Shown in pieces: positions 911-24,972 of a stretch of DNA of 30,610 nucleotides. How positions within the stretch are numbered: the first letter of the stretch is position 1; each line of letters starts with the position of its first letter. The notes beneath the pieces were generated by a model that ran no database searches, was not told the origin of the DNA, and was given only the letters and a program-made list of their open reading frames with translations. The position numbers were made by a program, and so were the translations under genes. The stretch comes from Bacteroidota bacterium (lineage in GTDB: Bacteria; Bacteroidota; Bacteroidia; Cytophagales; ES-bin-26). Where the stretch lies: assembly GCA_040385915.1 (NCBI GenBank), contig JAZKGK010000153.1, positions 12,466 to 43,075 on the forward strand, given 5' to 3'.

Positions 911-933
911 GGGTAGTGGATGAGTGAATGAGT

Positions 934-2046: not shown

Positions 2047-2069
2047 GTGGGTGAAGTGGGAGGGAGGTG

Positions 2070-2900: not shown

Positions 2901-3056
2901 GATCGTACTATTTTGAGTAGACCCAAATCTGGTAATTATCACCTACTTTAACTACCACTATTTTGCCAAAAATATATACTTTTTTGACTCAATATGGAAA
3001 GAGAGGGAGAATAATGGTAAGTTTAGGTTATAAAAGTCATTTTTATACAGAGCAAC

Positions 3057-3902
3057 GTGAAACCGCTGATTCAAAAATTACCGCTTTCTGAGCAGTCGTC
3101 CTTTGTGGCTGATACGTTTATAACACCCGCTTTTGAAACGCCCTGGCATTACCACGAGGAATACGAATTAGTCTTGATTCTCCAAAGCCATGGGAAGCGT
3201 TTCGTGGGCAATCACGTATCCGACTATGCCGTGGGCGAACTTGATTTTCTGGGCTCTAACCTACCGCATTGGTACCGGAAAGAAGACACGCAAGCGACAG
3301 GAGGCTCACTGGTCATTCACTTCCGGAAAGAATTTCTAGGAAAGGATTTTTTGGCGATTCCTGAAATGCAAAAAATTGGCTTTCTGTTCGAAAAGGCGCG
3401 GATGGGGCTGCACATAGGCGGGGAAACCCGGAGGGTCATGTGCGAGAAAATGCACGAAATGCTGGAATTAACAGGCATGAATCGGCTGACCGGATTGTTG
3501 GCTATCCTCGCCATCCTGGCCGACTCCGACGAATACGAATTGCTTTCTGGCCCCGAGATGAACGAACAAAACCCCCGCGACAGCGATCGGCTGAACAAGG
3601 TGTTCGACTACGTGATGGAGCATTTCAAGGAAGAAATCCGGGTGGAGGAGGTCGCCGACCTGGCGATGATGAGTTATTCGGGCTTCTGCCGGTATTTTAA
3701 GAATCGGACGAAAAAAAACTTTTCCCATTTTGTCAACGAAATCAGGATTGGTTACGCCTGTAAACGCCTGATGGAAAGAGACAGCAGGGTGACGAGCATT
3801 TGTTACGAAAGTGGTTTTCATAACCTAGCCAACTTTTCCAAACAATTCAAAAACATTGTCAAATGTACACCCCGGCAGTTTCAATCGCGACAGAATCGAT
3901 AA
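3057..3902 (+). CDS. AraC family transcriptional regulator (cupin-like N-terminal domain plus C-terminal AraC-type HTH)
   Basis: The C-terminal 100 aa carry the two-HTH AraC signature (…EEVADLAMMSYSGFCRYFKNRTKKNFSHFVNEIRIGYACKRL…GFHNLANFSKQFKNIVKCTPRQF). The N-terminal region has a His-rich cupin-like 'PWHYHEEYELVLI'. Apparent GTG start at 3057. It is divergent from the PhyH/Gfo/TIM operon. Confidence 0.85.
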   Translation: MKPLIQKLPLSEQSSFVADTFITPAFETPWHYHEEYELVLILQSHGKRFVGNHVSDYAVGELDFLGSNLPHWYRKEDTQATGGSLVIHFRKEFLGKDFLAIPEMQKIGFLFEKARMGLHIGGETRRVMCEKMHEMLELTGMNRLTGLLAILAILADSDEYELLSGPEMNEQNPRDSDRLNKVFDYVMEHFKEEIRVEEVADLAMMSYSGFCRYFKNRTKKNFSHFVNEIRIGYACKRLMERDSRVTSICYESGFHNLANFSKQFKNIVKCTPRQFQSRQNR

Positions 3903-3996: not shown

Positions 3997-4109
3997 CTGA
4001 GCGGACGCTCAGACCCACTTTTAGTCAAGCGACCGCTTGGCTTCCCTATACATTATTCCGTAAACGCCAATCAACCATCCTACCTTCGCCTCACTTATCT
4101 GCTCCACTG
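3997..4109 (+). repeat. Copy A of a ~112-bp repeat element (palindrome-1 ctgagcg-ga-cgctcag, palindrome-2 caagcg-ac-cgcttg, then a ~60-bp tail)
   Basis: Aligns at ~85% identity over ~112 bp with 5642..5752 (same orientation), and in inverted orientation with 30461..30549. Confidence 0.8.
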
Positions 4110-4121
4110 ATTCACGCTTAA

Positions 4122-4598
4122 TCATTTTACTTTTTTATTTGGAAGATAATCTTTATAAACCGACATTCCATTGCGAGGATTCCAGCCAAGAAGATAGATT
4201 TCACCAGAAGTTTGATTCTGAACAAAAGCTTTTTGAGATAGACTATCAATTGCAGTCAATTCTGATACAAATTTGCAATTCTTATTCTGTAGAATAGCGG
4301 CAATTTTTATGCTATCAAGCTGCTTGTGGTCGATAGAATATATCGCTCTAATAAAAACAGAATTATCATTGGCTATATGCTCATAGTGAACAAAGGTGTG
4401 ACCTTCCTGCTTGATATAGTAATTAGGCCATTTAAGCAATACGAAATCGTCATCCAGCAGTTTTTCACCAGAAAGACAGGAAACACTATTGTAGAAACCA
4501 AAACTGTCTTTGGAACAACATACATCACTAAATTGGCAAGAGAAAACTATCAATAGTAAGAAAATGCAAATGGAGAATAAATTAAGGGTTTTAGACAT
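4122..4598 (-). CDS. Hypothetical lipoprotein (ORFan, AT-rich)
   Basis: 158-aa ORF. N-terminal signal peptide with a lipobox-like LIVFSC. GC content is far below the surrounding genes. No recognisable domain. Confidence 0.5.
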   Translation of the reverse strand: MSKTLNLFSICIFLLLIVFSCQFSDVCCSKDSFGFYNSVSCLSGEKLLDDDFVLLKWPNYYIKQEGHTFVHYEHIANDNSVFIRAIYSIDHKQLDSIKIAAILQNKNCKFVSELTAIDSLSQKAFVQNQTSGEIYLLGWNPRNGMSVYKDYLPNKKVK

Positions 4599-4661
4599 TA
4601 GTGTTTGATAAAATCTGGTTTTGGTTCTTTATAATGCGAATTTATTAAAGCTCACCTCTTA

Positions 4662-4688
4662 GTCTTAGCGGACGCTCAATGCTGTCAA
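4662..4688 (+). repeat. Solo terminal-repeat-like copy (gtcttagcggacgctcaatgctgtcaa) of the MITE-like element's inverted repeat
   Basis: 27/27 match to the reverse complement of the right TIR at 5625..5659. Contains the agcg-ga-cgct palindrome core. Confidence 0.7.
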
Positions 4689-4730
4689 ATGCCAAAAGAA
4701 GGGCTGGGACTAGAAGGAGAAAGCAACTAA

Positions 4731-5414
4731 TTAGTCCCATTGAAGGAGAGTAAGTTTTAGGGGTATAGCTTCGGAAGTCTTAAGCTTAATAGCCCGAACC
4801 GACATAAGTCTTAGGTCAATAGACAATGTATCCAAATCCTCTGAATCATAAATTTGTTCACTTACATAAAGTTTTTGATTTTTATTATCTAAGATGTAGT
4901 ATTCTATGTATCCTACAGGTGAGGAATAATAGCTAAATATTGACAAGCCATTATGATTGTATTTATAAATGAAATCATCTTCATTTATACTATCAATAGC
5001 TTTCACTTTCCCTATACTATCACCATTACAAATAATTAAGCAATTTGTAATTGATGAATCTTTATATTTTATATTTTCATCATAGTCAATTTTAATCAAT
5101 AAAAGATGATTGTCTTGCGCAAAATAGTCCTTGTAAAACAAAAGCTTATTTATTGGAAATTTAGAATTAATAATACCCGTCTTTAATAACACCTGATAAG
5201 CCCATAATAAACTATCCTTATTTAGTGCCATTACAGTATTAGTTTTCTTCGGTTGTTCTATCTGGGCTGTTTTTTCAACTCTCTGAATAGAGATTATCTC
5301 CGACTTTTGCATCTTTTTTGTTGTATCAGAACTACAATCAAAAGCCAATAAGATTAAGAAAAAAAGCATAATCTTCACGATTAAATTTTGCAAGATTTTA
5401 GTTAGCATCGTCAT
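4731..5414 (-). CDS. Hypothetical lipoprotein (ORFan, very AT-rich)
   Basis: 227-aa ORF. Hydrophobic N-terminus ending in the lipobox-like LLAFDCSS. About 30% GC. Asn/Lys/Ile/Tyr-rich. No recognisable domain. Start could be an internal Met (5366). Confidence 0.5.
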   Translation of the reverse strand: MTMLTKILQNLIVKIMLFFLILLAFDCSSDTTKKMQKSEIISIQRVEKTAQIEQPKKTNTVMALNKDSLLWAYQVLLKTGIINSKFPINKLLFYKDYFAQDNHLLLIKIDYDENIKYKDSSITNCLIICNGDSIGKVKAIDSINEDDFIYKYNHNGLSIFSYYSSPVGYIEYYILDNKNQKLYVSEQIYDSEDLDTLSIDLRLMSVRAIKLKTSEAIPLKLTLLQWD

Positions 5415-5448
5415 TTTTATTAATGCAAAAGTCTCAGATCAATTCTGC

Positions 5449-5659
5449 CTGGTCTTAGCGTCCGCTCAATGCTGTCAACTTAAGGATAAAAAGGTGTTTT
5501 CTTCTTCTCTGTTGTCATCCTGAGCGGAGCGAAGGACCTTGTTATGGAGTTACCACTAAACAAATAATAAGGTCCTTCGCTCCGCTCAGGATGACAATCG
5601 CCTGTATAAAGTGGTGGCCATGTTCCTTAAGTTGACAGCATTGAGCGTCCGCTAAGACC
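5449..5659. mobile_element. MITE-like nested palindromic element: 35-bp terminal inverted repeats (5451..5485 and 5625..5659; 33/35 complementary) around a 28-bp perfect inner stem (5513..5540 / 5569..5596) with a 28-nt loop
   Basis: Direct inspection. The left TIR ggtcttagcgtccgctcaatgctgtcaacttaagg is the reverse complement of the right TIR except for the central dinucleotide. The inner IR tgtcatcctgagcggagcgaaggacctt / aaggtccttcgctccgctcaggatgaca is perfect. No ORF inside. Confidence 0.65.
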
Positions 5660-5752
5660 CACCCTTAGCCAAGCGTCCGCTTGGATTGCTTTACATTATC
5701 CAGTAAACGCCAATCAACCATGCTACCCTCGCCTCACTCATCTGCTCACTGC
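5642..5752 (+). repeat. Copy B of the ~112-bp repeat element (direct repeat of 3997..4109); its 5' end coincides with the right TIR of the MITE-like element
   Basis: tgagcgtccgctaagacccacccttagccaagcgtccgcttgg…ccagtaaacgccaatcaaccatgctaccctcgcctcactcatctgctcactg aligns with copy A at ~85% identity. Confidence 0.8.
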
Positions 5753-5994
5753 TAGGATTAGTGGGAGGTAATTTGAGTACCACACCCTTTCTAATAATGG
5801 CCTAGCGTATAAACAATAGCACCTTATTTCATTGGTATGTCTACGCCACAAAAATAGCTTTAACATTTGGAAAAAAACCGCATTTTATATTGTTATTTAG
5901 GGTTTCAGGGTATGAATCTTGCGGCGATATATTTTACTTTAATAGCTCTTTCAGGGGTTGGCAGGAGTAGAGACATGCAATACTTTTTCAATTG

Positions 5995-8900
5995 ATGAAA
6001 TCACTGGTACTATTCTCTTTGTGTTTGTCCATGCTTGCCTTGAAGTTGTATGGACAGACGGATAATGTGCATTTTGAACAACTTTCTACCAAGGAGGGGT
6101 TGTCCCATAGTATCGTTACTTGCACCTTGCAGGACAAGGAGGGCTTTATGTGGATTGGTACCCAGGATGGGCTCAACCGCTTTGACGGCTACAACTTTTT
6201 GCTCTTCGAGCACGACCCTCACGACAATACCAGCATCAGCAATAACGCTATCACGTGTCTCTACGAAGATCTAGAAGGACACCTGTGGATTGGTACCGAA
6301 AGTGGATTAAATAAATTTGATAAAAAAACCAATACCTTCCAGGTCTATCGACACGACCCTGCCAACCCTCAGTCCATTAGCCACGATCTGATAAGAACCA
6401 TTTATGCAGACCGAGCCAATATTTTATGGATTGGCAATTATGCGGGGCTGAATAAATTCAATAAGCAAACCAATACGTGTATCCTCTACGAGCACGCTCC
6501 CCAACATCCCAACAAATGGGCCTATAATCAGATTAATAAAATTTATGAAGACCGGCAAGGAAATTTTTGGTTGGGCACTAACCAAGGCATCAGCCATTTT
6601 GATCGAAAATCATTTCAGTTTACCCGCTATACACTGCCAACCGTATCCAGCCATGACATTGACCCTCGACATGCAGTTAGAGATATGATGGAAGATCGAA
6701 CGGGCGTTTTGTGGGTAGCGACTACGGGTGATGGCTTGGCTGCATTTGATCGGAAGACCACCCAGTTTAAAGTCTATGTACCCCAACCCAAAGACTCCCA
6801 TAGTATAAGGAGCAGCCATATTATGGCGCTCTTGGAAGACTCTTTCGGCACGCTTTGGATAGGCACACAAGACAAAGGCTTATGTCGGTTTGACCGAAGC
6901 AAAAATACTTTCATCCATAATAAACCCAAGCCTGCTTTACTAAAGGCTACTGGCCGTGATGCGGTTACATCCATTTATGAAGACCGCTCCAAAGTATTAT
7001 GGGTAGGTACTTATGAAGCAGGCTTGAAGAAAATAGACTTGTTAAGAAAGCAGTTCGCCCATCTATTCCACGAGCCGGGAAATGACAATAGCATCCGCCA
7101 GAATGATGTAACGGCCTTGTATGAAGACCACCTGGGCGCTATTTGGATTGGCAATGGAGCAGGCTTAGATAAGTTGGATAGAAGCAACGGCCAATATATC
7201 CACTATGATTATCCCGCTCCGGCACCAAAAAATCTTTGGGAAAATAATACCACTTGTATCTACGAAGACCAGGCGGGGCATTTATGGATAGGACTGCTTG
7301 GTGGCGGCTTGAAAAAGTTCGACCGGGCAACGCACCGCTTTACCAGCTATTTACACAATCCGTCCGATTCTACTAGTTTACCGCACGCGCTTGTCAATAC
7401 GATTTATCAAGACAAACAAGGCACCCTTTGGTTGGGCACTCGTTTTGGCTTAGCCCGCTTGGAAGAAGGAAAAGGGAGATTCATCAATTATAAGCCTCCT
7501 TTTCTCAAAACCCAGGCATTTGAAATCACTAAAATCATAGAAGATTCCCAGGGCGAATTGTGGCTGGCTGCTGACCAATATGGCCTCATGAAATTCAACC
7601 CTTCAACCGGGCATTTTACCCCATATGCTTATAAGGAGGCCACCTTTCGCAGTAAGGCGACGGCGATTCACAACCTCTATGAAGATCGGACGGGGTTGTT
7701 GTGGTTATGTCTGCAAGAGGGTGGATTGCTGTGCCTGAATAGTAAAACGGGAAGCTGTCGGGCGATTATGGAACCCAAAGCCTTAACCAAGACAGTTATC
7801 AATGGCATTCTGGCAGATGGGAAAGGAGATTTATGGCTGAGCACCAGCAAAAATGGCTTGTATCACTTTAATCCGGCCACGGCAGCCCTAACCATCTACG
7901 ATGCCTTGGATGGCTTGCAGGCCAATGAGTTTAGTGGGGCTTGCTTCAAAAGCATCACTGGCGAGATGTACTTTGGAGGCAAAAATGGCTTCAATATTTT
8001 TCATCCCGATAGCATTCAGCACAATCCGTATGCGCCTCCGGTAGCCATTAGCAGCTTCAAGGTATTTGACAAGCCCCGCAACTTATCCCAAGTGATTACC
8101 CTGCCCTACTATGATAATTTCCTCTCCTTCGATTTTGTTGCCCTCAGCTATGCTTTCCCTTCCAAAAACCAATATGCGTATCAGCTCGAAGGCTTTGATC
8201 AAGAATGGGTGCAGGCAGGTACGCGCCGCTATGCTTCTTTTACCAATCTACAGCCTGGCGAGTATGTCTTCCGCGTAAAAGCGGCTAACCACGACGGGGC
8301 CTGGAATGAGAAGGGCGCTTCGGTCAAAATCATTATTTCTCCGCCCCTGTGGAGGACAGTCGGTGCCTATATACTGTATGTAGCTTTGTTTATTGCCATG
8401 ATGGATGGTTTACGTCGCTATATCATCAGTCAGGAACGGTTAAAGAATAATTTATTATTAAGTAGTTTGGAGTCGGAAAAATTGATGGAGCTAGACCAGT
8501 TGAAGTCTCGGTTTTTTACCAGCATTTCTCACGAACTTCGGACACCCTTAACGCTCATTTTAAGTCCGTTAGAAAAGAATCTTGCTTCAGCAGACAAAGG
8601 TCGTTTCTTTGAGCAGGAAGTCCGGTTAATGCACCGCAACGCCAAGCGATTGTTAGAACTGATTAACCAACTTTTAGATATTTCTAAGCTGGAAGCCAAA
8701 AAGATGCAGTGGGAGGCAACGCCAGGAGACATGATGCCTCTCCTGAAAGCAACCGTGTTTTCCTTCCTGTCTTTGGCTGAAAGCAAGCAAATCAAACTGA
8801 CGTTTGAAAGCAATCTGGAATCACTGATAACCTTGTTTGACAAAGACAAGTTGGAAAAGATTATAACCAATCTGCTGGCCAACGCTTTGAAGTTTACGCC

Positions 8901-10110
8901 TAAGGGCGAAGTAAAAGTGACTGTATCGATAAAGAGGACGAATGAAAAGCAATGGATTGTCATAGCAGTGGAGGATACGGGCATTGGTATACCTTCGGAT
9001 AGAATCAATAAAATCTTTGACCGTTTCTATCAGGTAGACAGCTCGCACACCCGCGAGTTTGAAGGCACCGGCATTGGTTTGACCTTGACCAAAGAACTCG
9101 TAGAGTTGCAGCAAGGCACGATTGGCGTAACCAGTACCGTAGGCGAAGGCACCTGCTTTACCGTAGAACTCCCCCTGCTGGAAGTAGCCCATGAATTACT
9201 ACTGCCCCAGCCGGAGCAACCACCAAGCGAATTGCAGCAAGTCCAGCAGTTAATTCTCGAAGAAAAGATTTTTTTGGAAGAACATCTACCAAGCCCAGCA
9301 GATGAGCACGCGCCCCTGCTGTTGGTGGTGGAGGACAATGCCGACTTGCGTACCTACATTCGTAATATTTTCCAAGACCGCTACCGGATAATAGAGGCCT
9401 CCAATGGCGAGGAAGGGCTACAAATGGCCCTGGAAACCATTCCTGACCTGATCGTAAGTGATTGGATGATGCCCAAGATGGATGGCGTACAACTGTGCCA
9501 CCAACTCAAGACGGATGAGCGCACCAGCCATATCCCGATGATTTTATTGACCGCCAAAGCTACTGTGCAAAGCAAAATTGAGGGCTTAGAAACGGGAGCC
9601 GATGACTATATTACCAAGCCTTTTCATACCGAGGAGCTTTTCGTCCGGGCGAAAAATTTGATTGCCCAACGCAAAAGCTTACGAGAACGCTGGAATAAAG
9701 AATTTACTGTGGCTCCTCCAGTAGCAATCACCTCTCCTAAACCGATGTCTGCGCTTACGGTAAATGTGTTGGACGAGAAATTTTTGCAGCGGGTAATCCG
9801 TGTAATCGAAGCGAATATCGAGAATCCAGACTTTACTATCGAATCGATGGAAAAAGAAGTGGGCATGAGCCATACCAACTTAAACCGCAAGGTAAAAGCA
9901 CTCACCAATCAAGCGCCCAGTGAATTTATGCGACACTATCGGTTGCAGAAAGCCGCTCACTTACTGTCTCAACACACCAACAATGTATCAGAAGTAGCTT
10001 ACCAGGTAGGATTTGCCAACTTATCTTATTTCACCAAATGTTTCCGGCAAATGTACGGCACTACGCCTTCCGAATATACTGGCCAGCAGCCTCCTATCGA
10101 ACGGCCTTAA
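5995..10110 (+). CDS. Hybrid two-component system sensor histidine kinase/response regulator with AraC-type output (HTCS)
   Basis: 1372 aa, domains in order:
- Signal peptide.
- About 14 repeats of the two-component-regulator beta-propeller motif (…LWIGT..GL..FD…).
- Y_Y_Y-like region, then a TM segment (AYILYVALFIAMM).
- HisKA (FFTSISHELRTPLTLI).
- HATPase_c (NLLANALKFTP…VEDTGIGIP…GTGIGLTLTKELV).
- REC (LLLVVEDNADLR…DLIVSDWMMPKMDG…ILLTAKA).
- AraC HTH (…MRHYRLQKAAHLL…GFANLSYFTKCFRQMYGTTPSEY).
ATG at 5995; the track's 5992 is a TTG. Confidence 0.9.
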   Translation: MKSLVLFSLCLSMLALKLYGQTDNVHFEQLSTKEGLSHSIVTCTLQDKEGFMWIGTQDGLNRFDGYNFLLFEHDPHDNTSISNNAITCLYEDLEGHLWIGTESGLNKFDKKTNTFQVYRHDPANPQSISHDLIRTIYADRANILWIGNYAGLNKFNKQTNTCILYEHAPQHPNKWAYNQINKIYEDRQGNFWLGTNQGISHFDRKSFQFTRYTLPTVSSHDIDPRHAVRDMMEDRTGVLWVATTGDGLAAFDRKTTQFKVYVPQPKDSHSIRSSHIMALLEDSFGTLWIGTQDKGLCRFDRSKNTFIHNKPKPALLKATGRDAVTSIYEDRSKVLWVGTYEAGLKKIDLLRKQFAHLFHEPGNDNSIRQNDVTALYEDHLGAIWIGNGAGLDKLDRSNGQYIHYDYPAPAPKNLWENNTTCIYEDQAGHLWIGLLGGGLKKFDRATHRFTSYLHNPSDSTSLPHALVNTIYQDKQGTLWLGTRFGLARLEEGKGRFINYKPPFLKTQAFEITKIIEDSQGELWLAADQYGLMKFNPSTGHFTPYAYKEATFRSKATAIHNLYEDRTGLLWLCLQEGGLLCLNSKTGSCRAIMEPKALTKTVINGILADGKGDLWLSTSKNGLYHFNPATAALTIYDALDGLQANEFSGACFKSITGEMYFGGKNGFNIFHPDSIQHNPYAPPVAISSFKVFDKPRNLSQVITLPYYDNFLSFDFVALSYAFPSKNQYAYQLEGFDQEWVQAGTRRYASFTNLQPGEYVFRVKAANHDGAWNEKGASVKIIISPPLWRTVGAYILYVALFIAMMDGLRRYIISQERLKNNLLLSSLESEKLMELDQLKSRFFTSISHELRTPLTLILSPLEKNLASADKGRFFEQEVRLMHRNAKRLLELINQLLDISKLEAKKMQWEATPGDMMPLLKATVFSFLSLAESKQIKLTFESNLESLITLFDKDKLEKIITNLLANALKFTPKGEVKVTVSIKRTNEKQWIVIAVEDTGIGIPSDRINKIFDRFYQVDSSHTREFEGTGIGLTLTKELVELQQGTIGVTSTVGEGTCFTVELPLLEVAHELLLPQPEQPPSELQQVQQLILEEKIFLEEHLPSPADEHAPLLLVVEDNADLRTYIRNIFQDRYRIIEASNGEEGLQMALETIPDLIVSDWMMPKMDGVQLCHQLKTDERTSHIPMILLTAKATVQSKIEGLETGADDYITKPFHTEELFVRAKNLIAQRKSLRERWNKEFTVAPPVAITSPKPMSALTVNVLDEKFLQRVIRVIEANIENPDFTIESMEKEVGMSHTNLNRKVKALTNQAPSEFMRHYRLQKAAHLLSQHTNNVSEVAYQVGFANLSYFTKCFRQMYGTTPSEYTGQQPPIERP

Positions 10111-10185
10111 GCTTTACCGCTATTCCACCCGAAACAATCACTAAGTTATACGTATAAGCTAAAGTTCACCAATTGTTAGCTGCGT

Positions 10186-11367
10186 ATGAATCAGTTGTCA
10201 AGTGTAAACTCCCTTTTTCGCTCTTTCTGGCAAGCCGGTTTTGAGTGTGCCGATCACCTCAATTACCATGGCGATCGAGTAGATTTACTGAAGGAAACCG
10301 CCCACGATGTCTTAATAGACGAAGATTATGCTGCCCTGGCTCCCTTCCAAATTCAAACCGTGCGCGAAGGCATTCGTTGGAATCGGGTAGAAAAGAAGCC
10401 CGGCCTCTATGATTGGACGGACGTAATAGAAAGAATAGAAGCGGGGCAAAGAAATGGCATTCAACAGCTTTGGGACATTTGTCACTTTGGTTTTCCCGAC
10501 GATTTGTCTCCTCTGCAGCCACACTTTTCTGAGCGCCTCGCTTCTGTAAGTCAGGCGTTTGTCCAGCTCTGGCATTCGCTTTCCGACGAGCCCCTGATTG
10601 TAACACCTATCAATGAAATAAGCTTTTTGTCGTGGCTGGGTGGAGAAGTGAAAGGCACGGTTCCTTATACCACCGAACGAGGATTTGAGCTCAAGTACGA
10701 ACTGGTAAAAGCGGCCATTGCATCCATAGAAGCCATTTGGCAGGTGGATCCCCAGGTAAGGATTTTGCATACCGAGCCCTTGGTCTATATTCTTCCGGTG
10801 GGTGACGAGCCAGAAATGATAGCACAAGCAGCGCAAGCCAATGAAATACAGTTTCAAACCCTGGATATGCTGTCAGGCAGCATGTGCCCAGAGCTAGGAG
10901 GGCGCAAGGAATACCTCGACCTGATTGGCCTGAACTACTATTTTGATAATCAATGGGAACACGAACGTACCCGCATTCGATGGGAAGAGCCCCGCGATCG
11001 GCGCTGGAAACCTTTATCGGTGCTTTTGCAGGAAGTATATAGCCGATATAACCGCCCGATGACTATTTCTGAAACCAGCCATTTGGGCGTTGGGCGCGGA
11101 GATTGGATTTTGGAAATAGCCAGGGAATGCTGCCAAGCAATCGAAAATGGAGTCGATCTCCAAGGCATTTGCCTATATCCTATCCTCGACCGACCCGATT
11201 GGGATAACCTTAACCTGTACCATAACTCCGGCCTGTGGGATTTGGAACACCATCCAAATAAGCCTCCCAAGCGGGTTTTGTGTGAACACTATGCCAAAGA
11301 TCTACTCAAGGCCCAGCAAACACTAAACACCCACATGCCCCTCAAAGCCAGGTGGATCTATGCTTGA
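10186..11367 (+). CDS. Glycoside hydrolase family 1-like (clan GH-A) protein, cytoplasmic; paralog a
   Basis: 393 aa. GH1-like signatures: acid/base-like 'IVTPINEISF' (T-x-NEP analogue), nucleophile-like 'MTISETSHLG' (ITENG analogue), and 'DICHFGFPDDL' resembling GH1 'HWDLPQ.L'. No signal peptide. About 55% identical to the next gene. Confidence 0.6.
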   Translation: MNQLSSVNSLFRSFWQAGFECADHLNYHGDRVDLLKETAHDVLIDEDYAALAPFQIQTVREGIRWNRVEKKPGLYDWTDVIERIEAGQRNGIQQLWDICHFGFPDDLSPLQPHFSERLASVSQAFVQLWHSLSDEPLIVTPINEISFLSWLGGEVKGTVPYTTERGFELKYELVKAAIASIEAIWQVDPQVRILHTEPLVYILPVGDEPEMIAQAAQANEIQFQTLDMLSGSMCPELGGRKEYLDLIGLNYYFDNQWEHERTRIRWEEPRDRRWKPLSVLLQEVYSRYNRPMTISETSHLGVGRGDWILEIARECCQAIENGVDLQGICLYPILDRPDWDNLNLYHNSGLWDLEHHPNKPPKRVLCEHYAKDLLKAQQTLNTHMPLKARWIYA

Positions 11368-11629
11368 CAGTCATCAACTATGTACTCTCATTTCGTATAG
11401 AATGGCTGACTGAGATAAATTCTTGTCATTTATGGGTAAATACTAAATAAACCATTTGCCAGCAAAACATGTCTGTCATAGCATAGTCGTTCTTTTTCAG
11501 TATTTTATTTAAACCAATTGAATTATATATACAAACATTTTAGACAAAACTTACTTGATCTAAACCAACCAAATAACGTCCGATTTAGAATGATCTATAA
11601 GGGTATTTTTGTTGCACTATTTTTATCAC

Positions 11630-12826
11630 ATGAACACAGAAACTATTTTTAAAACGAATCCTTTGTTTCGTTCTTTTTGGCAGGCTGGTTTTGAGTGCGC
11701 CGATCATTTAAACTGCCACGGTGATCGGGTTAATATTTTGAAAGAAACATTTCACGATGTATTGGCCGAAGAGGATTATGCTCGTTTAATTCCACTAAAT
11801 CTGCTCACTGTTCGAGAGGGAATTTGCTGGAATACAGTAGAGAAAATACCAGGACAATACGATTGGAGCGAAGTAATTAACCGGATTGAGGCTGGCAAAG
11901 AAGCTGGTATACAACAAATCTGGGACATCTGTCATTTTGGGTATCCCGACGATTTATCGCCTTTCCAGCCCCGCTTTGCGGAACGCTTTGCCAATATATG
12001 CCGGGCTTTTGCCGTACTGTGGCGTTCGCTCAGTGATGAAACGCTGATTGTGACCCCCATTAATGAAATCAGCTTTATTTCCTGGCTCGGCGGTGAGATC
12101 AAGCAGACTGTACCCTATACACAAGGCCTGGGTTTTGAAGTTAAACGCGCGTTGGTTAAAGCCTGCATCGCGGGCATGGAAGCCATATGGGAAGTAGACC
12201 CGGAAGCCCGATTTTTGCATACCGAGCCCTTGATATACGTGTTGCCGGGCGACGACCAGCCCCAAACCCTGGCCGAAGTAGCAGCCATTAATGAAGACCG
12301 TTTCCAGGCGCTCGACATGCTAGCCGGAAAACTGCATCCAGAACTGGGCGGCAAGCCTGAATACCTGGATATTATTGGCCTCGATTTTTACTACAATAAT
12401 CAGTGGATACATTTTGGCTCGCGCGTGCAATGGGAAGCCCCCCAAGATCCCCGCTGGATACCGTTATCGCAGTTGCTGAAGCAAGTCTACGATCGGTATA
12501 ACCGTCCTTTGGTGTTGGCGGAAACCAGCCATCTGGGCATTGGCCGGGGAGAATGGGTGAGGGAAATAGGGCAGGAATGTCAGCAAGCCCTGGCAGAAGG
12601 AGTGGATTTATGGGGTGTTTGTCTGTATCCCATCATCGACCGTCCCGACTGGGATAACCTGAGCCACTACCACAATTCAGGTCTGTGGGACGTAATCCTT
12701 AAGCCTGGGTTTCCTTCGGAGCGGGTTTTATGTGAACATTACGCCAAAGATTTGCTGATGGCTCAACTCCAATTGAGTCCATACATACCTCATAGACAGT
12801 CTATTGAAGTTTCGAAATTAGCATAG
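11630..12826 (+). CDS. Glycoside hydrolase family 1-like (clan GH-A) protein, cytoplasmic; paralog b (tandem duplicate of 10186..11367)
   Basis: Same motif set as paralog a (FRSFWQAGFECADHLN, TPINEISF, LAETSHLG). Start taken at ATG 11630 (MNTETIF…), which aligns with the paralog-a N-terminus. The track's 11609 is a TTG. A TATTTTTG motif (11604..11611) just upstream resembles the Bacteroidetes -7 promoter element. Confidence 0.6.
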   Translation: MNTETIFKTNPLFRSFWQAGFECADHLNCHGDRVNILKETFHDVLAEEDYARLIPLNLLTVREGICWNTVEKIPGQYDWSEVINRIEAGKEAGIQQIWDICHFGYPDDLSPFQPRFAERFANICRAFAVLWRSLSDETLIVTPINEISFISWLGGEIKQTVPYTQGLGFEVKRALVKACIAGMEAIWEVDPEARFLHTEPLIYVLPGDDQPQTLAEVAAINEDRFQALDMLAGKLHPELGGKPEYLDIIGLDFYYNNQWIHFGSRVQWEAPQDPRWIPLSQLLKQVYDRYNRPLVLAETSHLGIGRGEWVREIGQECQQALAEGVDLWGVCLYPIIDRPDWDNLSHYHNSGLWDVILKPGFPSERVLCEHYAKDLLMAQLQLSPYIPHRQSIEVSKLA

Positions 12827-14288
12827 CAGCATCTCCCGCTATTGCTGGAATATCTATTGTCAGGGTTTCTGACGTGAGCAGTGAGAAAGGCTCCAAGGTA
12901 TGGCGTTCGCCGGTCAGCGTATTCCAGACCACCACCGAGTACAGTCCCGCTTCCATGGCTGAAACCCTGATTTTTGCCTTTTGGGGCAATAGGTTAGGGT
13001 GAAGCAAGCCTTCGGCAGTAAGGTCTTTTGTTTGAAGAAACCAAAGAATGACCTGCTTTTCGTTTCCGCAAGCAAATCCCTTAAAAAAGCTAGGAGAAAT
13101 TTTCACCTGCGCATCCAGATTTGTTCTTGAAAAAAATTGCCAATCCACGTCTTGAATAAATGCAGCCAATACCTTTTGGGCTTGACGCATACCCTGCGTC
13201 AGTACGTGTGGATGGCGATAAGGCCAGCGAAAGCCTCCACCCGCGCCACCTGCGGCCAGATGCGCCCATTGCATATGTCGGAAATACTGATCGTCAAAAC
13301 ACGCTGGCAAAGTGCCCTGTTTTCGTCGGAAACTGCGGTCGGGGCCGTGCTCGCTGTCCAGAAATGGCCGGCCGTCCCGAATGTGGCGCAAGGCCTCTCG
13401 CGTGAGTACGCCCGTTTGCAAAGCTGGCTTTACCGTATTGGAAGGCAGCCGAATGGAGGCATCATAGAAGTGGACACTGGCAAAGTCCAGGAGTGGATGC
13501 CGAAAAATGACTTCGCTTAGGTCGGGGTGCTTCTTTAATACGGGACTGTATACCGATACCGTTTGCAAGTGCGCCCGTCCGTGGATATCCATTTCCAGTT
13601 CGCGCAGATAGCGGCTCATCTCGCTCACCCAGGCATGCAAAGTCTGGCTATCGTGACCCGCATGTGCCGGGTCGATTTCATTCCACAAGTCCCAGGCAAA
13701 AAGCGCCCCGCTACTGCCCCAGCGCCGCGTGGCAAAAGCAAGCCGGGCTTTGATCGCCGATAAAGTTGCCGGACAAGTAAGCCATTGGGAAGGACGTTGG
13801 CAAAAACCGCCATTCGCCCGGTTGTATGGATGTTTAGCCCAGCGTTTCCGCATCCAGAAGGTGTCATACGGCGTAAGCAGGATACGCAAGCCGTGCTTGG
13901 CACAAAGCGCGAATACATCGTCCCACAGCATAATAATATTCGGCTGAAAAACACCTGCCGGACGTTCTAAATAGCGGTTTTCGGTATGGCAGTACTCCAA
14001 CATCAGCCGTAAACAAGTAACGCCGTGAGAGACCAGCGTTGAAAAATACTGATCGACACTGTTGACATCTTTCCGGCGAAAAAGCCCCGCCAAGTCCGGC
14101 CAGGTAATGGCATCGTTCTGGCCAATGGGCGTCCAATTCTCTCCTTGGTCCGTCAAAAAGTAAGGCGCATGCGGGGCTACCTGTATCCAGGGCAAGGAAA
14201 AGGGATGAATAGGTACTGCTTGACTCTTGGATTGATTGGAAGGAAATAGGCGATTAGGGAACGTTACTCTATCACTGCTGTCTGCCAT
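12801..14288 (-). CDS. Glycoside hydrolase family 5-like (clan GH-A) hydrolase, cytoplasmic
   Basis: 'AWDLWNEID' matches the GH5 acid/base NEP strand and 'FLDSEHGP' is a candidate nucleophile strand. About 495 aa, no signal peptide. ATG start at 14288 (MADSSDRV) is preferred over the TTG at 14318. The 3' end overlaps the convergent paralog-b gene by 26 bp. Confidence 0.55.
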   Translation of the reverse strand: MADSSDRVTFPNRLFPSNQSKSQAVPIHPFSLPWIQVAPHAPYFLTDQGENWTPIGQNDAITWPDLAGLFRRKDVNSVDQYFSTLVSHGVTCLRLMLEYCHTENRYLERPAGVFQPNIIMLWDDVFALCAKHGLRILLTPYDTFWMRKRWAKHPYNRANGGFCQRPSQWLTCPATLSAIKARLAFATRRWGSSGALFAWDLWNEIDPAHAGHDSQTLHAWVSEMSRYLRELEMDIHGRAHLQTVSVYSPVLKKHPDLSEVIFRHPLLDFASVHFYDASIRLPSNTVKPALQTGVLTREALRHIRDGRPFLDSEHGPDRSFRRKQGTLPACFDDQYFRHMQWAHLAAGGAGGGFRWPYRHPHVLTQGMRQAQKVLAAFIQDVDWQFFSRTNLDAQVKISPSFFKGFACGNEKQVILWFLQTKDLTAEGLLHPNLLPQKAKIRVSAMEAGLYSVVVWNTLTGERHTLEPFSLLTSETLTIDIPAIAGDAAMLISKLQ

Positions 14289-14315
14289 GGCTCGTTCGAT
14301 TGCCGGATTGTTAAA

Positions 14316-14376
14316 CAAAAGAAAGGAAAAAGCCCCAATACTACCTTACAGTAGGGAGGCTTTTTCCTTTCTTTTG
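14316..14376 (-). promoter_or_regulatory. Hairpin between the third GH1-like gene and the GH5-like gene (19-bp perfect stem, 23-nt loop)
   Basis: caaaagaaaggaaaaagcc (14316..14334) pairs with ggctttttcctttcttttg (14358..14376). Lies 28 bp upstream of the preferred GH5 start codon and between two co-directional genes. Confidence 0.4.
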
Positions 14377-14386
14377 TCAAATTTGC

Positions 14387-15613
14387 TTATACGAACGTGG
14401 GTTTTGGCAGATGATTAATCGAAAATACATGGCCAGCCTCTTTCATTTCAGCCGTATATTGAGCTATAATGTTGTGATAAGCTTCTCCTACCGGTCTTAT
14501 TTTACGGTCAATGTCGTATAGTCCAAACGCATTGACGTTTCCATTGTCTTCCCGCAAAGCCGTATCCCAATCTATCTGGTCAATAAGGCTGTACCAAGTG
14601 AAACCAACCACGGGTATACCCTCTTGTTTGAGCCGCAACAATTCATTCCATTGTTGATGTAGCCAAGCCACCGCTTTTTCAGCACCAATATTGGTTTCCG
14701 TATACATCACCGGAACGCGGTAACGATCGTAGTATTGGCGCGCTACCTGGTAAAATCCCAGGCCGTTAAAAAAGTCGCTGGTGCGTCCGTCTGGGTGCAC
14801 CATGTGTTCATTATGGGCATAGTAATCGGCTCCAATGACCCATTTACCCCGGCAAGGATGGTTACGAAACCAAGCATATTCATCTTTGGTCATTCCGTGG
14901 TGCAGCAAATAATCCTGCATCAGTTGACTGGAAGGATAACCGCAGGTCAGATCATAGGGCAAGAACCGCTTTTGGTTGAGGAAATCGGCTTTTTCATGGC
15001 AGGCGTCAGTCTCGGTATGGAAATATTCCCAGCCTTCACTTTGGATAAATACGGCCTCTGGTTGTATACTCAAAATGGCGTCCATCGCCAGCAAATTGGC
15101 TTTGCACATGTGCTTTAGGGCTGTAACAAAGCCATGTTCATCGGCAAGTCGCTCGTTCCACCAGCCGAACTGTGCCGAAAAAATGGCACAAATATTTATT
15201 TCATTCACAGGTGTATACAAGCGTAAATCTGGGAATCGTTTGGCAAAGGCCAGTGCATATTCCGCGAAATGAGCCGGGAAGTCGGGGTTCTGAAAATTGC
15301 CTAACCAATCAGGGACACCGAAATGGCATAAGTCGACAATGGGCGTAATTCCCATGGCTTTCATGGCAGCAAAAGTTTCATCAGTAAAGTGCCAGTCATA
15401 TTGGCCAGGTGCTAAGTGGGTAGCATAATAAGGCGGCCCGTAGCGTAAAAATTGCATCCCACTTTCCCGAACCAAACGAAAGTCTTCGCGCCAGCGCTGA
15501 TAATGCCCAGCCTTTTCCATTTCGTCTACGCGCTTGGTGGTACCATTCGGCAGCACAATGGTAGGGTAACTATTTTCAATGCCAGTGGCAAACATAAAAG
15601 GTAATTGATTCAT
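14387..15613 (-). CDS. Glycoside hydrolase family 1-like (clan GH-A) protein, cytoplasmic; divergent third paralog
   Basis: 408 aa. N-terminal 'FMFATGIENSYP'. 'GITPIVDLCHFGVPDWL' resembles GH1 'GIEPfVTLyHWDlPqaL'. Acid/base-like 'YTPVNEIN' and nucleophile-like 'MYTETNIG' (ITENG-like). No signal peptide. Confidence 0.6.
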   Translation of the reverse strand: MNQLPFMFATGIENSYPTIVLPNGTTKRVDEMEKAGHYQRWREDFRLVRESGMQFLRYGPPYYATHLAPGQYDWHFTDETFAAMKAMGITPIVDLCHFGVPDWLGNFQNPDFPAHFAEYALAFAKRFPDLRLYTPVNEINICAIFSAQFGWWNERLADEHGFVTALKHMCKANLLAMDAILSIQPEAVFIQSEGWEYFHTETDACHEKADFLNQKRFLPYDLTCGYPSSQLMQDYLLHHGMTKDEYAWFRNHPCRGKWVIGADYYAHNEHMVHPDGRTSDFFNGLGFYQVARQYYDRYRVPVMYTETNIGAEKAVAWLHQQWNELLRLKQEGIPVVGFTWYSLIDQIDWDTALREDNGNVNAFGLYDIDRKIRPVGEAYHNIIAQYTAEMKEAGHVFSINHLPKPTFV

Positions 15614-15861
15614 AGCTGATAGGTAGTTGATGGACTAATCAATGGGTTGGCCGAGCCTGCTTTCCAACAGTGGGGCAAGCATAAAAATCAATGGATAATA
15701 ATTATGGAAAACAAGACTACATACAAGAAAATCAATGTGTTAGCTATTTGTTTTTGCTTTAACAAAGTAAATACTTGCCTCCTTACTTAACCATACATTA
15801 TTACAAATTATCCTACACCAATAAAACTTTCCTGAGGCATCAACGGAAGAAAATCAGCCCA

Positions 15862-15903
15862 TAAAAAAGCCCTTTGTAAATGATTCATTTACAAAGGGCT
15901 TTT
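15862..15903 (-). terminator. Rho-independent terminator (bidirectional-capable) downstream of cvpA
   Basis: aagccctttgtaaatg / catttacaaagggctt forms a 16-bp stem with a 3-nt loop. It is flanked by AAAAA on the plus strand (U-tract for the minus-strand transcript) and TTT on the other side. Confidence 0.75.
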
Positions 15904-16563: not shown

Positions 16564-17607
16564 TTATTGTTTCGGTCTCAACTCGCGCACTTTGGCGCCA
16601 GTCTGCCACATTTCTGAATCGTGGATTTCCTGCAATTCGGCTTCCAACTTCACCCGGTAATCAGGCTGGCTGTTGGTAGCGATAGAACGAGCAGCTTCCT
16701 GACCGGTAGCTACTTTTTCGTACAGTTCTTCAAATACAGGCAAGGTAGCCTCGCGGAACTTGTGTCTCCAATCTAAGGCGCCACGTTGCGCAGTAGTAGA
16801 GCAGTTGGCGTACATCCAATCCATGCCGTTTTCAGATACCAGTCTGATCAAGCTTTCTGTCAATTCTTCTACGGTTTCGTTGAAAGCCTCGCTTGGCGAA
16901 TGGCCTTTTCTACGCAAAGTATCGTATTGCGCTTCCATTACACCAGCCAAAGCACCCATCAAGATACCCCGTTCGCCAGTCAAGTCGCTGTATACTTCTT
17001 TTTCAAAAGTAGTTTCAAACAAATAGCCAGAACCTACGCCAATACCCAGCGCCGTTACTGTGTCTAAAGCCTTGCCAGAAGCATCTTGGAAAATAGCAAA
17101 GCTGGAGTTCAATCCCTTGCCTTGCAAGAACAAGCGACGAAGGCTAGTTCCTGAACCTTTAGGAGCAACCAATACTACATCCACATCAGCGGGTGGAACG
17201 ATGCCGGTTTGGTCTTTATAAGTAATGCCGAAGCCGTGAGAGAAATAAAGCGTTTTGCCTTTGGTAAGGTATTTCTTTACGGTAGGCCACAGAGCAATTT
17301 GTGCTGCATCGGAAAGTAAAAAGCAAATGATCGTGCCTTTTTCTAACGCTTCTTCGATAGAAAGAAGTGTTTTTCCTTCTACAAAGCCATCAGCTTTAGC
17401 CTTATCCCAAGATTTGGAAGGTTGGCGTTGTCCTACAATCACATTAAAACCGTTGTCTTTCAGGTTTAGCGCTTGTCCAGGACCTTGCACCCCGTAGCCG
17501 ATAACGGCAATGACTTCATCTTTTAATGTTTGTCTCGCTTTTTCTAAGGGAAATTCTTCCCGCGTCACTACATTCTCTTCGACTCCGCCGAAATTAATTG
17601 TTGCCAT
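16564..17607 (-). CDS. ilvC: Ketol-acid reductoisomerase (class I, NADP+)
   Basis: 347 aa. Begins MATINFGG…, with the GxGxQG dinucleotide motif (VIGYGVQGPGQALNL) and KARI catalytic-domain conservation. Confidence 0.95.
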   Translation of the reverse strand: MATINFGGVEENVVTREEFPLEKARQTLKDEVIAVIGYGVQGPGQALNLKDNGFNVIVGQRQPSKSWDKAKADGFVEGKTLLSIEEALEKGTIICFLLSDAAQIALWPTVKKYLTKGKTLYFSHGFGITYKDQTGIVPPADVDVVLVAPKGSGTSLRRLFLQGKGLNSSFAIFQDASGKALDTVTALGIGVGSGYLFETTFEKEVYSDLTGERGILMGALAGVMEAQYDTLRRKGHSPSEAFNETVEELTESLIRLVSENGMDWMYANCSTTAQRGALDWRHKFREATLPVFEELYEKVATGQEAARSIATNSQPDYRVKLEAELQEIHDSEMWQTGAKVRELRPKQ

Positions 17608-17678: not shown

Positions 17679-17912
17679 TTATGCTTTGGTTACGGTAGTG
17701 ATGTCCAAAGTACGCATCATATTTTTAAACACTTGCTCGGCAATCAGCGGCTCCTCTTCGAAAGCAACGGTACAAACAGCCGTGGTTTCTGTCTCGCGCT
17801 GGTAGCTCAAACTTGTGACCCGCATACCCCTTTTGCGAATGGGCATTAAGATTCGGTCAATCATTTCGGGCGTATGGTGGCAGGCAATGTGCCAGGTATG
17901 TAATTCTTTCAT
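17679..17912 (-). CDS. ilvM: Acetolactate synthase small (regulatory) subunit, short IlvM-type, single ACT domain
   Basis: 77 aa. 'HTPEMIDRILMPIRKRGMRVTSLSY' parallels E. coli IlvM 'FNPETLERVLRVVRHRGFHVCSMNM'. Sits 3 bp downstream of the large-subunit gene. Confidence 0.7.
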   Translation of the reverse strand: MKELHTWHIACHHTPEMIDRILMPIRKRGMRVTSLSYQRETETTAVCTVAFEEEPLIAEQVFKNMMRTLDITTVTKA

Positions 17913-17915
17913 GGC

Positions 17916-19658
17916 TTATCTGGTAATCAGCTGCGTTTTTTGTTTGGCGTGTAATTCTTCGCCTTCGGGATAATAAATGGTATCGCTTAGGGTAGTTCCT
18001 GGTGCAATCATAGGCAATACGTTGTCTTCTTTCACCACCTTGGCATGAATCAGGAATGGCCCTTTGGCATTGCTTGCCAGGTGCAGCGCTTCTTTATATT
18101 CTTCTACGGTAGAAGCACAAACAGCATCAATACCGTATGCTTTAGCCAGCATCACAAAGTCCGGATTCATCAGATTCACTCCTGAGTAGTTACCAGCCCA
18201 GAATTGCTCCTGCCACTGGCGTACCATTCCCAGATAATTATTGTCCAGAATAAGAACCCGTATGGGATAATTTTCCTGCACGCAAGTCATCAACTCCTGG
18301 ATGTTCATCTGAATGGAACCATCGCCGGAAATGCACCACACCTGATTACCAGGAGCTGCCGCTTGAGCGCCCATGGCCGCAGGTAGGCCAAAGCCCATCG
18401 TACCCAAACCAGCCGAAGTAAGGAAGCGGTTAGGATTCATGCGGGTAACGTACTGTGCTGCCCACATCTGGTGCTGGCCTACATCAGTCGATACAATCGC
18501 ATCTTCGTCCATCACTTCGTTGAGTACATCCAGTGCCGTAATCATGTTGAAAACATCATGGTTGGCTTCTTTGAACGGGTACTTGGCGCGCTGCTGGTCT
18601 AAATGCTCTACCCACTGACGACGAACGCGCAGATTTTCGCGGGTACGGGTGTCTGGTATTGCTTGCAAAGCCCGTTTTACATCCGCGTGTAAAAATACGT
18701 TTGCCCGTACGTTTTTGCTGTTTTCGCTCTTGTCAATATCTATGTGAACAACTTTGGCATTTGGCGCAAACTTGTCGAGCTTCCCCGTAATACGATCATC
18801 AAAGCGCATCCCTACCGCAATCAGTAAATCTGCCTGCTGCACGGCATCATTGGCGTATTTGGTTCCGTGCATTCCCAACCAAGAGAAGTACAGCGGATCA
18901 TTGTGTTTCAGTACTCCAATCCCCAAAATGGTAGAAATGGTCGGAAGGTGTTCACGTTTGATAAAATCGCGGAACTCCTGGCAAGCATCAGAAAGTATAA
19001 TTCCGTGTCCGGCCAAAATCAAAGGCTTCTTGGCTTCCGATATCAGCTTAACCGCTTGGGCGATCTGCTCGTCATCGGTATTGAATAACCGCTCTCTTTG
19101 GGGAATGGTATAGTGTTGTTCCCAATCGGCATCTAACTCAATTGTAGCTACTTGTACATCGCGGGGAATATCTACCAATACCGGACCAGGTCTGCCACTA
19201 ATGGCTGTCAGGTAAGCATCCTGCAAAATGCCAGGTACTTCGCTCAGGTGACGCGCGATATAGGTACGCTTGGTAATAGGCATGCAAATACCCGTGATGT
19301 CCGTTTCCTGAAAAGCATCGGAGCCAATCAAAGGGCCGGCTACCTGCCCGGTAATGGCAATCATCGGAATAGAGTCGGCAAAGGCATCGGCAATACCCGT
19401 AACCATATTAGTAGCCCCAGGGCCAGAAGTAGACAGGCAAAAGCCTGGCTTACCTTTTACCCGCGCATAACCATTGGCGGCTAGTGCTCCGCCCTGTTCG
19501 TGGCGTACCAGAATGTTTTTTACTTTGCTGAAGGCGAGTGCATCATAAATGGGTAGGATGGCACCACCAGGATAAGCGAATAGATTATCCGCTCCTAAAC
19601 ATTCCAGCAACTTAACGATGTAATCGGCGCCTCTGAGTTTGATCTTGTCGTTTTCCAT
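17916..19658 (-). CDS. ilvB: Acetolactate synthase large (catalytic) subunit, biosynthetic type (ThDP/FAD)
   Basis: 580 aa. N-terminal ThDP-pyrimidine domain (GYARVKGKPGFCLSTSGPGATNMVTGIADA) and ThDP-binding motif (ISGDGSIQMNIQEL…). Confidence 0.95.
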   Translation of the reverse strand: MENDKIKLRGADYIVKLLECLGADNLFAYPGGAILPIYDALAFSKVKNILVRHEQGGALAANGYARVKGKPGFCLSTSGPGATNMVTGIADAFADSIPMIAITGQVAGPLIGSDAFQETDITGICMPITKRTYIARHLSEVPGILQDAYLTAISGRPGPVLVDIPRDVQVATIELDADWEQHYTIPQRERLFNTDDEQIAQAVKLISEAKKPLILAGHGIILSDACQEFRDFIKREHLPTISTILGIGVLKHNDPLYFSWLGMHGTKYANDAVQQADLLIAVGMRFDDRITGKLDKFAPNAKVVHIDIDKSENSKNVRANVFLHADVKRALQAIPDTRTRENLRVRRQWVEHLDQQRAKYPFKEANHDVFNMITALDVLNEVMDEDAIVSTDVGQHQMWAAQYVTRMNPNRFLTSAGLGTMGFGLPAAMGAQAAAPGNQVWCISGDGSIQMNIQELMTCVQENYPIRVLILDNNYLGMVRQWQEQFWAGNYSGVNLMNPDFVMLAKAYGIDAVCASTVEEYKEALHLASNAKGPFLIHAKVVKEDNVLPMIAPGTTLSDTIYYPEGEELHAKQKTQLITR

Positions 19659-22629: not shown

Positions 22630-22630
22630 A

Positions 22631-22687: not shown

Positions 22688-22707
22688 TTTCAACTTAATT
22701 TAAAACT

Positions 22708-24861: not shown

Positions 24862-24884
24862 ATCCATTCGTCAATCGTATTTAC

Positions 24885-24964: not shown

Positions 24965-24972
24965 CTAATGTA

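Follow-up and report, generated by a model that had tools for sequence, protein, structure and literature searches.

Four divergent clan GH-A genes beside a hybrid two-component sensor in a Bacteroidota genome form a separate block, with a possible role in the metabolism of an endogenous glycan

The stretch of soil Bacteroidota DNA analysed here (contig JAZKGK010000153.1; 30,610 nt, the whole of which is referred to as the window) contains a gene for a hybrid two-component sensor (HTCS) followed by four genes for putative clan GH-A glycoside hydrolases, referred to as A to D (Table 1). These four genes are a discrete, mobile unit without the sensor, because a relative keeps the arrangement D-C/B-A in other flanks and short contigs keep parts of it. 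In other genomes, the recurrent partners of the same gene families are a glycosyltransferase and a mutase. We give a probability of roughly one half to the reading that A-D work in the cytoplasm as retaining glycosidases or transglycosylases, their substrate being a glycan of the cell's own that may contain galactofuranose, and not an oligosaccharide imported by a polysaccharide utilisation locus (PUL).

The closest relative with enough sequence is a 14.5-kb Joint Genome Institute (JGI) contig (L004), in which the orthologues of A, C and D are 89%, 78% and 88% identical to those of the window and the gene order is the same. The L004 block is flanked on one side by LexA-like and MOSC genes and on the other by a gene for a 745-aa protein and sulfatase genes, and no HTCS is present. 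Comparison by blastn gave 79–84% identity over window positions 10124–11363, 11490–14192 and 14383–15627 and nothing outside, with the similarity running from 14 bp past the HTCS stop codon, including the 62-bp region upstream of A, to 14 bp beyond the D start codon. Two further short contigs carry D, C and B-clade genes in one case and C and B-clade genes in the other. As the orthologous block in L004 has no HTCS and the similarity starts past the HTCS stop codon, the HTCS is not a conserved part of the block. The 745-aa protein, which occupies the HTCS position in L004 (L004:8016–10253, minus strand), has a weak match to Prok-RING_4 and no homologue in the window or in any of 170 loci.

The HTCS is intact by its predicted domain content, with eight Reg_prop repeats, Y_Y_Y, HisKA, HATPase_c, Response_reg and HTH_18/AraC domains, all above Pfam thresholds, and with a hydrophobic N-terminal signal and a membrane segment near residue 789. 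A predicted periplasmic sensor, membrane segment, histidine kinase (HisKA/HATPase_c), receiver and AraC helix-turn-helix are thus combined in one polypeptide. A first-pass annotation of this DNA had described an HTCS beside four clan GH-A-like genes with no SusC/SusD in the window, which the Pfam, fold and open reading frame (ORF) data bear out, and had proposed that the HTCS controls the four genes. In such a scheme the HTCS would sense a periplasmic oligosaccharide or glycoside and switch on A-D to finish the breakdown of the imported compound, with a transporter lying beyond the window. The HTCS gene is directly 5' of A on the same strand, and the 76-bp gap between the HTCS stop codon and the A start codon contains no predicted terminator and no match to TAnnTTTG, the Bacteroidota −7 promoter consensus. 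It is also established that HTCS regulators commonly adjoin the glycan-degrading genes they control (e.g. PMC3243724 and PMC3404733), and completing the breakdown of imported β-glycosides is a classical task of cytoplasmic GH1 enzymes.

We nonetheless find HTCS control of the block doubtful. The evidence for it is adjacency in one genome; the block occurs without the HTCS in L004, where A keeps its own upstream region, and the recurrent partners of A-, C- and D-type genes, described below, are biosynthetic enzymes, including partners joined to them by gene fusion. No SusC-like gene was found in the window, which has no ORF of suitable size or family, and no other sugar transporter was found there either. 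Neighbours within 10 kb were surveyed in 80 species-level loci of the A family, which is carried by at least 552 GTDB species, and, for the C family, in 80 loci from metagenomes. An HTCS was present in 4 of these 160 loci (3 of the A family, 1 of the C family) and a SusC-like gene in 8 (6 and 2, respectively), rarely adjacent; by our own rough estimate of the number of SusC-like genes per Bacteroidota genome, the latter frequency does not seem to exceed background. A single full-length HTCS is found near a C-type gene, 5' of it in locus L122; it was considered as support for HTCS control and rejected, as it pairs with its own divergent SusC/SusD. The HTCS is thus most likely a context-specific neighbour and an independent regulator, whose proximity to the block is lineage-specific.

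A and B share 66% identity over 380 aa, more than the 55% or so first estimated, and their duplication, which had been taken for a recent tandem event, is old, because L004 has both copies and each of the two heads its own clade of orthologues from other contigs. Standard models of GH1 do not capture the pair: A scores 17.2 bits against Pfam PF00232, below the cut-off of 22.6 bits, B has no match at E ≤ 0.1, and A, B and D are all far below the NCBIfam BGL cut-off. The predicted AlphaFold model of A, with a predicted local distance difference test score (pLDDT) of 89.8, was compared with the PDB using Foldseek, and the top 50 matches were all GH1 enzymes (E about 1e-17, template modelling (TM) score 0.65–0.76, the best at 0.71–0.76, 14–19% identity). 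The A-family profile aligns with the GH1 structure 6z1h (E 5e-8), placing TPINE on NEP, SETS on ITENG and DRPDW on DNFEW. In this alignment N143-E144 (TPINEI) is the candidate acid/base site of A and E296 (ISETS) the candidate nucleophile; the motif that replaces ITENG is SETS or AETS in A and B, and its Glu aligns with the Glu of ITENG.

These residues are invariant in the family alignment. When 1.84 billion cluster representatives were searched with a profile, 400 A-family members were obtained at E ≤ 1e-30, of which the best 148, clustered at 50% identity, were analysed; with A and B added (150 sequences), N143 is conserved in 136 of 142 sequences, E144 in 137 of 141 and E296 in 127 of 132. 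His100 (131/138), Tyr252 (138/144) and Trp339 (121/126) are conserved as well. By profile alignment, the last three are positions of the GH1 glycone-binding site that A retains, whereas the canonical Gln, Trp and Glu of this site are replaced by Glu20, Tyr331 and Asp338, and because of these three replacements the sugar specificity of A is probably not that of a classical β-glucosidase.

D is a divergent GH1 member as judged by profile comparison, scoring 46.7 bits against PF00232, which passes the 22.6-bit cut-off, and its family profile matches GH1 structures in the PDB down to E values of 1.4e-16. Its candidate acid/base site, N137-E138 (TPVNEI), and candidate nucleophile, E306 (YTETN), are invariant in the family alignment. 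TPVNEI of D and TPINEI of A and B align with the NEP motif of 6z1h and 1np2, and TETN takes the place of ITENG. A and D are 23% identical (E 3e-20), and their family profiles match at 99.7% probability. The motifs CHFG.PD, TP(I/V)NEI and ETS/ETN are present as first described, and the earlier suggestion that these are short proteins with an ETS-type motif belonging to distinct GH1-related lineages also holds: from their sequences, A/B and D are classed as short, divergent and distinct lineages related to GH1, with SETS or TETN for ITENG.

C has no Pfam match, including to PF00150 (Cellulase), and no NCBIfam match at E ≤ 0.1, and PF00150 appears as a precomputed match in 3 of 120 C homologues among the matches listed. 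The best sequence match of C is the GH5 β-mannanase ManDH5 (2.4e-8), followed by fungal and plant GH5 mannanases (4e-4 to 3e-3), and ManDH5 is also the best fold match of the predicted C model (pLDDT 83.3; Foldseek E 3e-25, TM-score 0.71, 21% identity). The candidate acid/base site N213-E214 (WNEID) aligns with N302-E303 of ManDH5, where E303 is the position mutated to Gln in the deposited E303Q complexes, and the candidate nucleophile E323 (DSEHG) aligns with the Glu of GEFG; N213, E214 and E323 are invariant in 24 sequences. C is GH5-like by fold and catalytic residues, though it fails the Pfam model. ManDH5 comes from Dictyoglomus thermophilum (PDB 9GMJ, 9GPA and 9GPG, deposited as 'DUF5060 domain-containing protein') and resembles C in its catalytic Glu pair and C-terminal β-sandwich. 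The two are 20–21% identical, and C lacks the N-terminal DUF5060 domain and a signal peptide. No relevant paper on ManDH5, 9GMJ or DUF5060 was found in the literature searched.

As the first-pass annotation had noted, none of the four proteins has a signal peptide; nor did the maximal ORFs contain a hydrophobic N-terminus or membrane-like segment. Since the listed ORFs are already the longest possible, no hidden signal peptides are expected upstream, and A-D are predicted to be cytoplasmic. The conservation of the candidate Glu pairs in the family alignments, including more than 96% conservation in the 148 A-family representatives, answers the earlier call to check the catalytic residues and argues for the two-Glu, retaining-type catalysis proposed for A-D being real. 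It also counts against A being a pseudo-enzyme.

In the A-family loci, a GT4-like glycosyltransferase (Pfam Glyco_trans_1_4, TuaH-like) lies within 10 kb of the A-type gene in 17 of 80 cases, mostly adjacent to it, and a UDP-galactopyranose mutase in 10 of 80, the mutase passing TIGR00031 with 401 bits against a cut-off of 304. The loci with these partners belong to Cytophagales, Sphingobacteriales and Chitinophagales, and the genera include Pontibacter, Larkinella, Dyadobacter, Mucilaginibacter and Ilyomonas, together with several lineages known as metagenome-assembled genomes. An amine-oxidase-family flavoprotein is encoded directly 5' of A in four Segetibacter-type loci, and two Chloroflexota loci have genes for a GT2 and an NAD-dependent epimerase/dehydratase after A. 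AA_permease and cation-efflux genes near A were considered as functional links and rejected, being confined mainly to Hymenobacter synteny.

The other two families have the same partners. In L108 and L115 the order glycosyltransferase, mutase, C is found on one strand, and their mutase shares 82% identity with its counterpart in Pontibacter amylolyticus, in which A takes the third position. L153 and L162 bring together C, the glycosyltransferase gene and an A-like gene. For D there are three independent long contexts, and in two of them (L167 and L169) genes for a glycosyltransferase, a mutase and a fusion of GH1 and RmlD-like domains (GH1::RmlD) lie no more than two genes away from D; in L151 and L165 a fusion of this kind is found 5' of C. 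Because A, C or the GH1::RmlD fusion can each fill the position after glycosyltransferase and mutase, their roles may be related or interchangeable. The first-pass annotation had suggested processing of an imported oligosaccharide; the recurrent partners instead are a GT4-like glycosyltransferase with or without a mutase, and because these recurrent neighbours and the fusion partners described below are a glycosyltransferase and a mutase, an endogenous, biosynthesis-linked substrate is the reading that we prefer.

The GH1::RmlD fusions are proteins of 719–732 aa (L167:11572–13731, minus strand; L169:5323–7521, plus strand), also seen in L068, L151 and L165. Their GH1 domain is closest to D (26% identity), the other domain resembles dTDP-4-dehydrorhamnose reductase (RmlD_sub_bind), and in L167, L169 and L068 they come after the glycosyltransferase and mutase genes. 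A literature search on GH1-RmlD fusions or on clusters of a mutase with GH1 returned nothing relevant.

Fusions of the A-type domain are common. Forty of the 148 A-family representatives (about a quarter) have lengths of 640 aa or more. The TuaH-like glycosyltransferase encoded beside A, C and D in Bacteroidota recurs as a domain in at least 26 of these long proteins; about 9 contain another type of GT4, and 5 have an added NAD_binding_8/Amino_oxidase flavoprotein domain. This flavoprotein best matches PRK07208, far better than it does carotenoid desaturases, and the mutase gene gives secondary matches to PRK07208. The genome of an isolate, Polaromonas glacialis, encodes a triple fusion (WP_232229858.1, 1287 aa). 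The fusions are independent evidence, at the level of domain architecture, that the GH1-like domain may work with the TuaH-like glycosyltransferase. They also bear on the naming of A/B-type proteins, which NCBI calls 'amine oxidase', a misnomer that has probably spread from multi-domain relatives combining GH1-like, GT4 and amine-oxidase or UDP-galactopyranose-mutase-like flavoprotein domains.

The same observations bear on whether A-D might be housekeeping glycosidases with unrelated functions brought together by chance, or sugar-binding proteins devoid of catalysis, which we regard as very improbable. In favour of this, A-, C- and D-type genes are unlinked to one another in most genomes. Against this, the four-gene arrangement is kept in L004 with other flanks and in part on the two short contigs, D adjoins A in three Spirosoma species, one glycosyltransferase/mutase partner is common to all three families, and the catalytic Glu residues are conserved as described above.

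In the biosynthesis-linked reading, the glycosyltransferase would build an endogenous glycan or glycoside, possibly containing galactofuranose, in the cytoplasm, and A-D would hydrolyse or transglycosylate that product in turnover, trimming, recycling or chain-length control, while the HTCS beside the block would act as an independent regulator. Several points weigh against it. The window itself contains no glycosyltransferase or mutase match, and in most loci the A, C and D families stand alone, making the association frequent and not universal. GT4 enzymes are retaining, and GH1 and GH5 enzymes normally cleave β-linkages, so it is not guaranteed that the hydrolase simply cuts what this glycosyltransferase makes. 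Co-transcription of the HTCS with A in this genome is weakly suggested by the 76-bp gap, the shared strand and the lack of a predicted terminator.

A different kind of endogenous substrate, namely a sugar-bearing small molecule or lipid (for instance a carotenoid, a polyprenol or a membrane glycolipid), from which the GH-like enzymes would remove the sugar head group or on which they would swap it, seems to us improbable. Glycolipids and small-molecule glycosides are frequent products of GT-B and GT4 enzymes, the partner flavoproteins fall into an amine-oxidase/CrtI-like superfamily, and polymer export genes were not noted in the loci with annotated neighbours. C also adjoins two clusters of a kind that such a substrate would suit. 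C-type genes end a cluster with a TIGR04290 methyltransferase and several glycosyltransferases in 10 loci. In 5 other loci (L118, L122, L127, L133 and L134) they immediately adjoin a cassette for a GT2, a NodS-like methyltransferase, a PIG-L deacetylase and an acyl-CoA dehydrogenase. On the other side, in most cases the flavoprotein encoded beside the glycosyltransferase is a genuine UDP-galactopyranose mutase, which is a nucleotide-sugar enzyme, the fused flavoprotein fits PRK07208 and not carotenoid desaturases, and the closest structure to C is an endo-acting mannanase with a long cleft, suggesting a polymeric substrate. The TIGR04290-type cluster (L086–L090 and L094) further encodes an NAD-dependent epimerase, a Zn-dependent alcohol dehydrogenase, a Gfo/Idh/MocA oxidoreductase, a GT4 and an unannotated GT-like protein in 2–3 copies; nothing relevant on TIGR04290 was found in the literature, and both clusters look like uncharacterised sugar-modifying pathways.

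The biosynthesis-linked reading can be extended, tentatively and with the odds against it, to an undescribed and widespread cytoplasmic system in which a GT-B glycosyltransferase, a mutase or mutase-like flavoenzyme and interchangeable GH1- or GH5-like enzymes would build and remodel a galactofuranose-containing glycan or glycoside inside the cell. The GH1-like domain would then serve as a transglycosylase, chain-length or turnover enzyme, a role to which its natural fusions with the glycosyltransferase point, and A/B would represent a new GH1-related family and possibly the first GH1-type furanosidase. Such a system would occur in soil Bacteroidota and also in Chloroflexota and Pseudomonadota. 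The review PMC12290620 assigns the known β-D-galactofuranosidases to GH2, GH5_13 (including the M. tuberculosis enzyme), GH43 subfamilies, GH117 and GH159 and lists no GH1 member. These enzymes provide a precedent within clan GH-A and GH5, and GH5-like and GH1-like homologues of C and A lie directly 3' of the mutase elsewhere. Galactofuranoside activity of A-D is purely hypothetical, and a furanosidase role for A, B or D, which would be new, is speculation.

Compared with GH1 β-glycosidases such as Thermotoga maritima BglA (1OD0) and the reconstructed ancestral enzyme 6Z1H, A shares the (β/α)8 fold, the Asn-Glu acid/base site after strand 4, the nucleophile after strand 7, the His of H-W-D-L-P, the Tyr of N-Y-Y and the C-terminal Trp. 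It differs in its low identity to them, and A, B and D are shorter (393–408 aa, against about 440–480 aa for GH1 enzymes); A and B also fall below the Pfam and NCBIfam thresholds and have ITENG replaced. The genomic setting differs too, with glycosyltransferase and mutase partners for A, B and D where GH1 genes have phosphotransferase system (PTS), ATP-binding cassette (ABC) transporter or PUL uptake genes. PULs under HTCS control likewise have an intact Reg_prop/Y_Y_Y HTCS with AraC output beside GH-like genes, but the present locus is not a PUL, because the window has no SusC/SusD pair and no exported or lipoprotein enzymes. Nor is its HTCS conserved with the block; L122, by comparison, contains a true HTCS-SusC/SusD set. 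The A-type fusions, which join a GT-B glycosyltransferase to the GH1-like domain in at least 26–35 of the 148 representatives, resemble in architecture a known cytoplasmic enzyme. There, a GH-fold domain carries out cyclisation and is fused to the glycosyltransferase by which its substrate is made. The folds and families are unrelated (GH1-like and GT4-like here) and the window genes are unfused, making this an analogy and not homology. What is unusual is the occurrence of divergent clan GH-A lineages in a cytoplasmic setting linked to biosynthesis.

No characterised member of the A/B, C or D lineages and no paper on them was found in the literature searched, although the three have thousands of homologues in databases (3,569 for A, 2,358 for C and at least 8,000 for D), and one of them, A/B, is misnamed across NCBI annotations. 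The fusions and neighbourhoods give a testable set of partners (a GT4-like glycosyltransferase, a mutase and a GH-like enzyme) as well as specific candidate substrates. If the biosynthesis-linked reading is true, it would mean a new specificity or subfamily in GH1 and GH5 and an intracellular glycan pathway in common soil bacteria. The locus is also a caution that a regulator next to hydrolase genes in Bacteroidota is not always a PUL.

Table 1. Coordinates of the sensor gene, the four-gene block and associated signals in the window (ORFs are the longest possible)
Feature	Position	Strand	Description
HTCS	5992–10110 (ATG 5995)	+	1372 aa; Pfam domains
A	10186–11367	+	393 aa, GH1-like (β/α)8
B	11630–12826	+	398 aa, paralog of A
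C	12801–14318	−	505 aa maximum, GH5-like TIM barrel with C-terminal β-sandwich
D	14387–15613	−	408 aa, short GH1 family protein
Four-gene block A, B, C, D	10124–15627	.	5.5 kb; blastn against L004
Match to −7 promoter consensus, TATTTTTG	11604–11611	+	19 bp 5' of B ATG
Hairpin with T-run, aaagccctttgtaaa-tgaatca-tttacaaagggctttttt	15862–15903	−	3' of cvpA stop codon; read from sequence

Within the block, A and B are separated by an AT-rich spacer of 263 bp, and B and C are convergent, their 3' ends overlapping by 26 bp. D is upstream of C on the same strand with a gap of about 70–100 bp, and the two likely form an operon. The NCBI start of C at 14288 gives a protein of 495 aa; for B, a TTG at 11609 is an alternative start of the ORF, and the NCBI model (P0008) has 398 aa. 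The sequence TATTTTTG upstream of B fits the consensus TAnnTTTG, a motif that shows no enrichment over the window, with 18 occurrences against 24.5 expected, and is weakly suggestive of a promoter of B's own. A sigma-70 promoter and terminator scan of the window performed no better than on shuffled sequence, the sigma-70 model not being applicable to Bacteroidota promoters. The hairpin with a T-run at the D side is likely a terminator separating cvpA from D, as read from the sequence, and is not among the matches of a consensus terminator scan. Rfam and tRNA scans of the window gave no matches, and defence-system models had no match for A-D.

The D-side flank contains cvpA and ilvC/B/D. A 77-aa ORF (17679–17912, minus strand) between ilvB (17916–19658) and ilvC (16564–17607) is probably an unusually short acetolactate synthase small subunit. 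On the HTCS side, a low-GC island at 4001–6000 (35–36%, against about 47% elsewhere), directly 5' of the HTCS, may have been recently acquired; it encodes two hypothetical, putatively exported proteins with hydrophobic N-termini and no family matches (4122–4598 and 4731–5414, minus strand). Beyond it, a separate small catabolic unit (5–3902) comprises the gene of a stand-alone AraC regulator and, in divergent orientation, genes for a xylose-isomerase-like TIM barrel, a Gfo/Idh/MocA oxidoreductase and a PhyH-family dioxygenase. The Gfo/Idh/MocA ORF overlaps the dioxygenase gene by about 120 bp, and its true start is probably further downstream.

At the far end of the window, a group of three genes (21961–29943, plus strand) encodes a YqiJ_N-like membrane protein (222 aa), a coiled-coil protein of 717 aa and a 1656-aa protein with DUF3686, DUF7902 and AAA ATPase domains. 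The coiled-coil protein is rich in Lys, Glu and Ala, has an N-terminal membrane segment and no Pfam match, and causes the strong AT skew at 23–25 kb.

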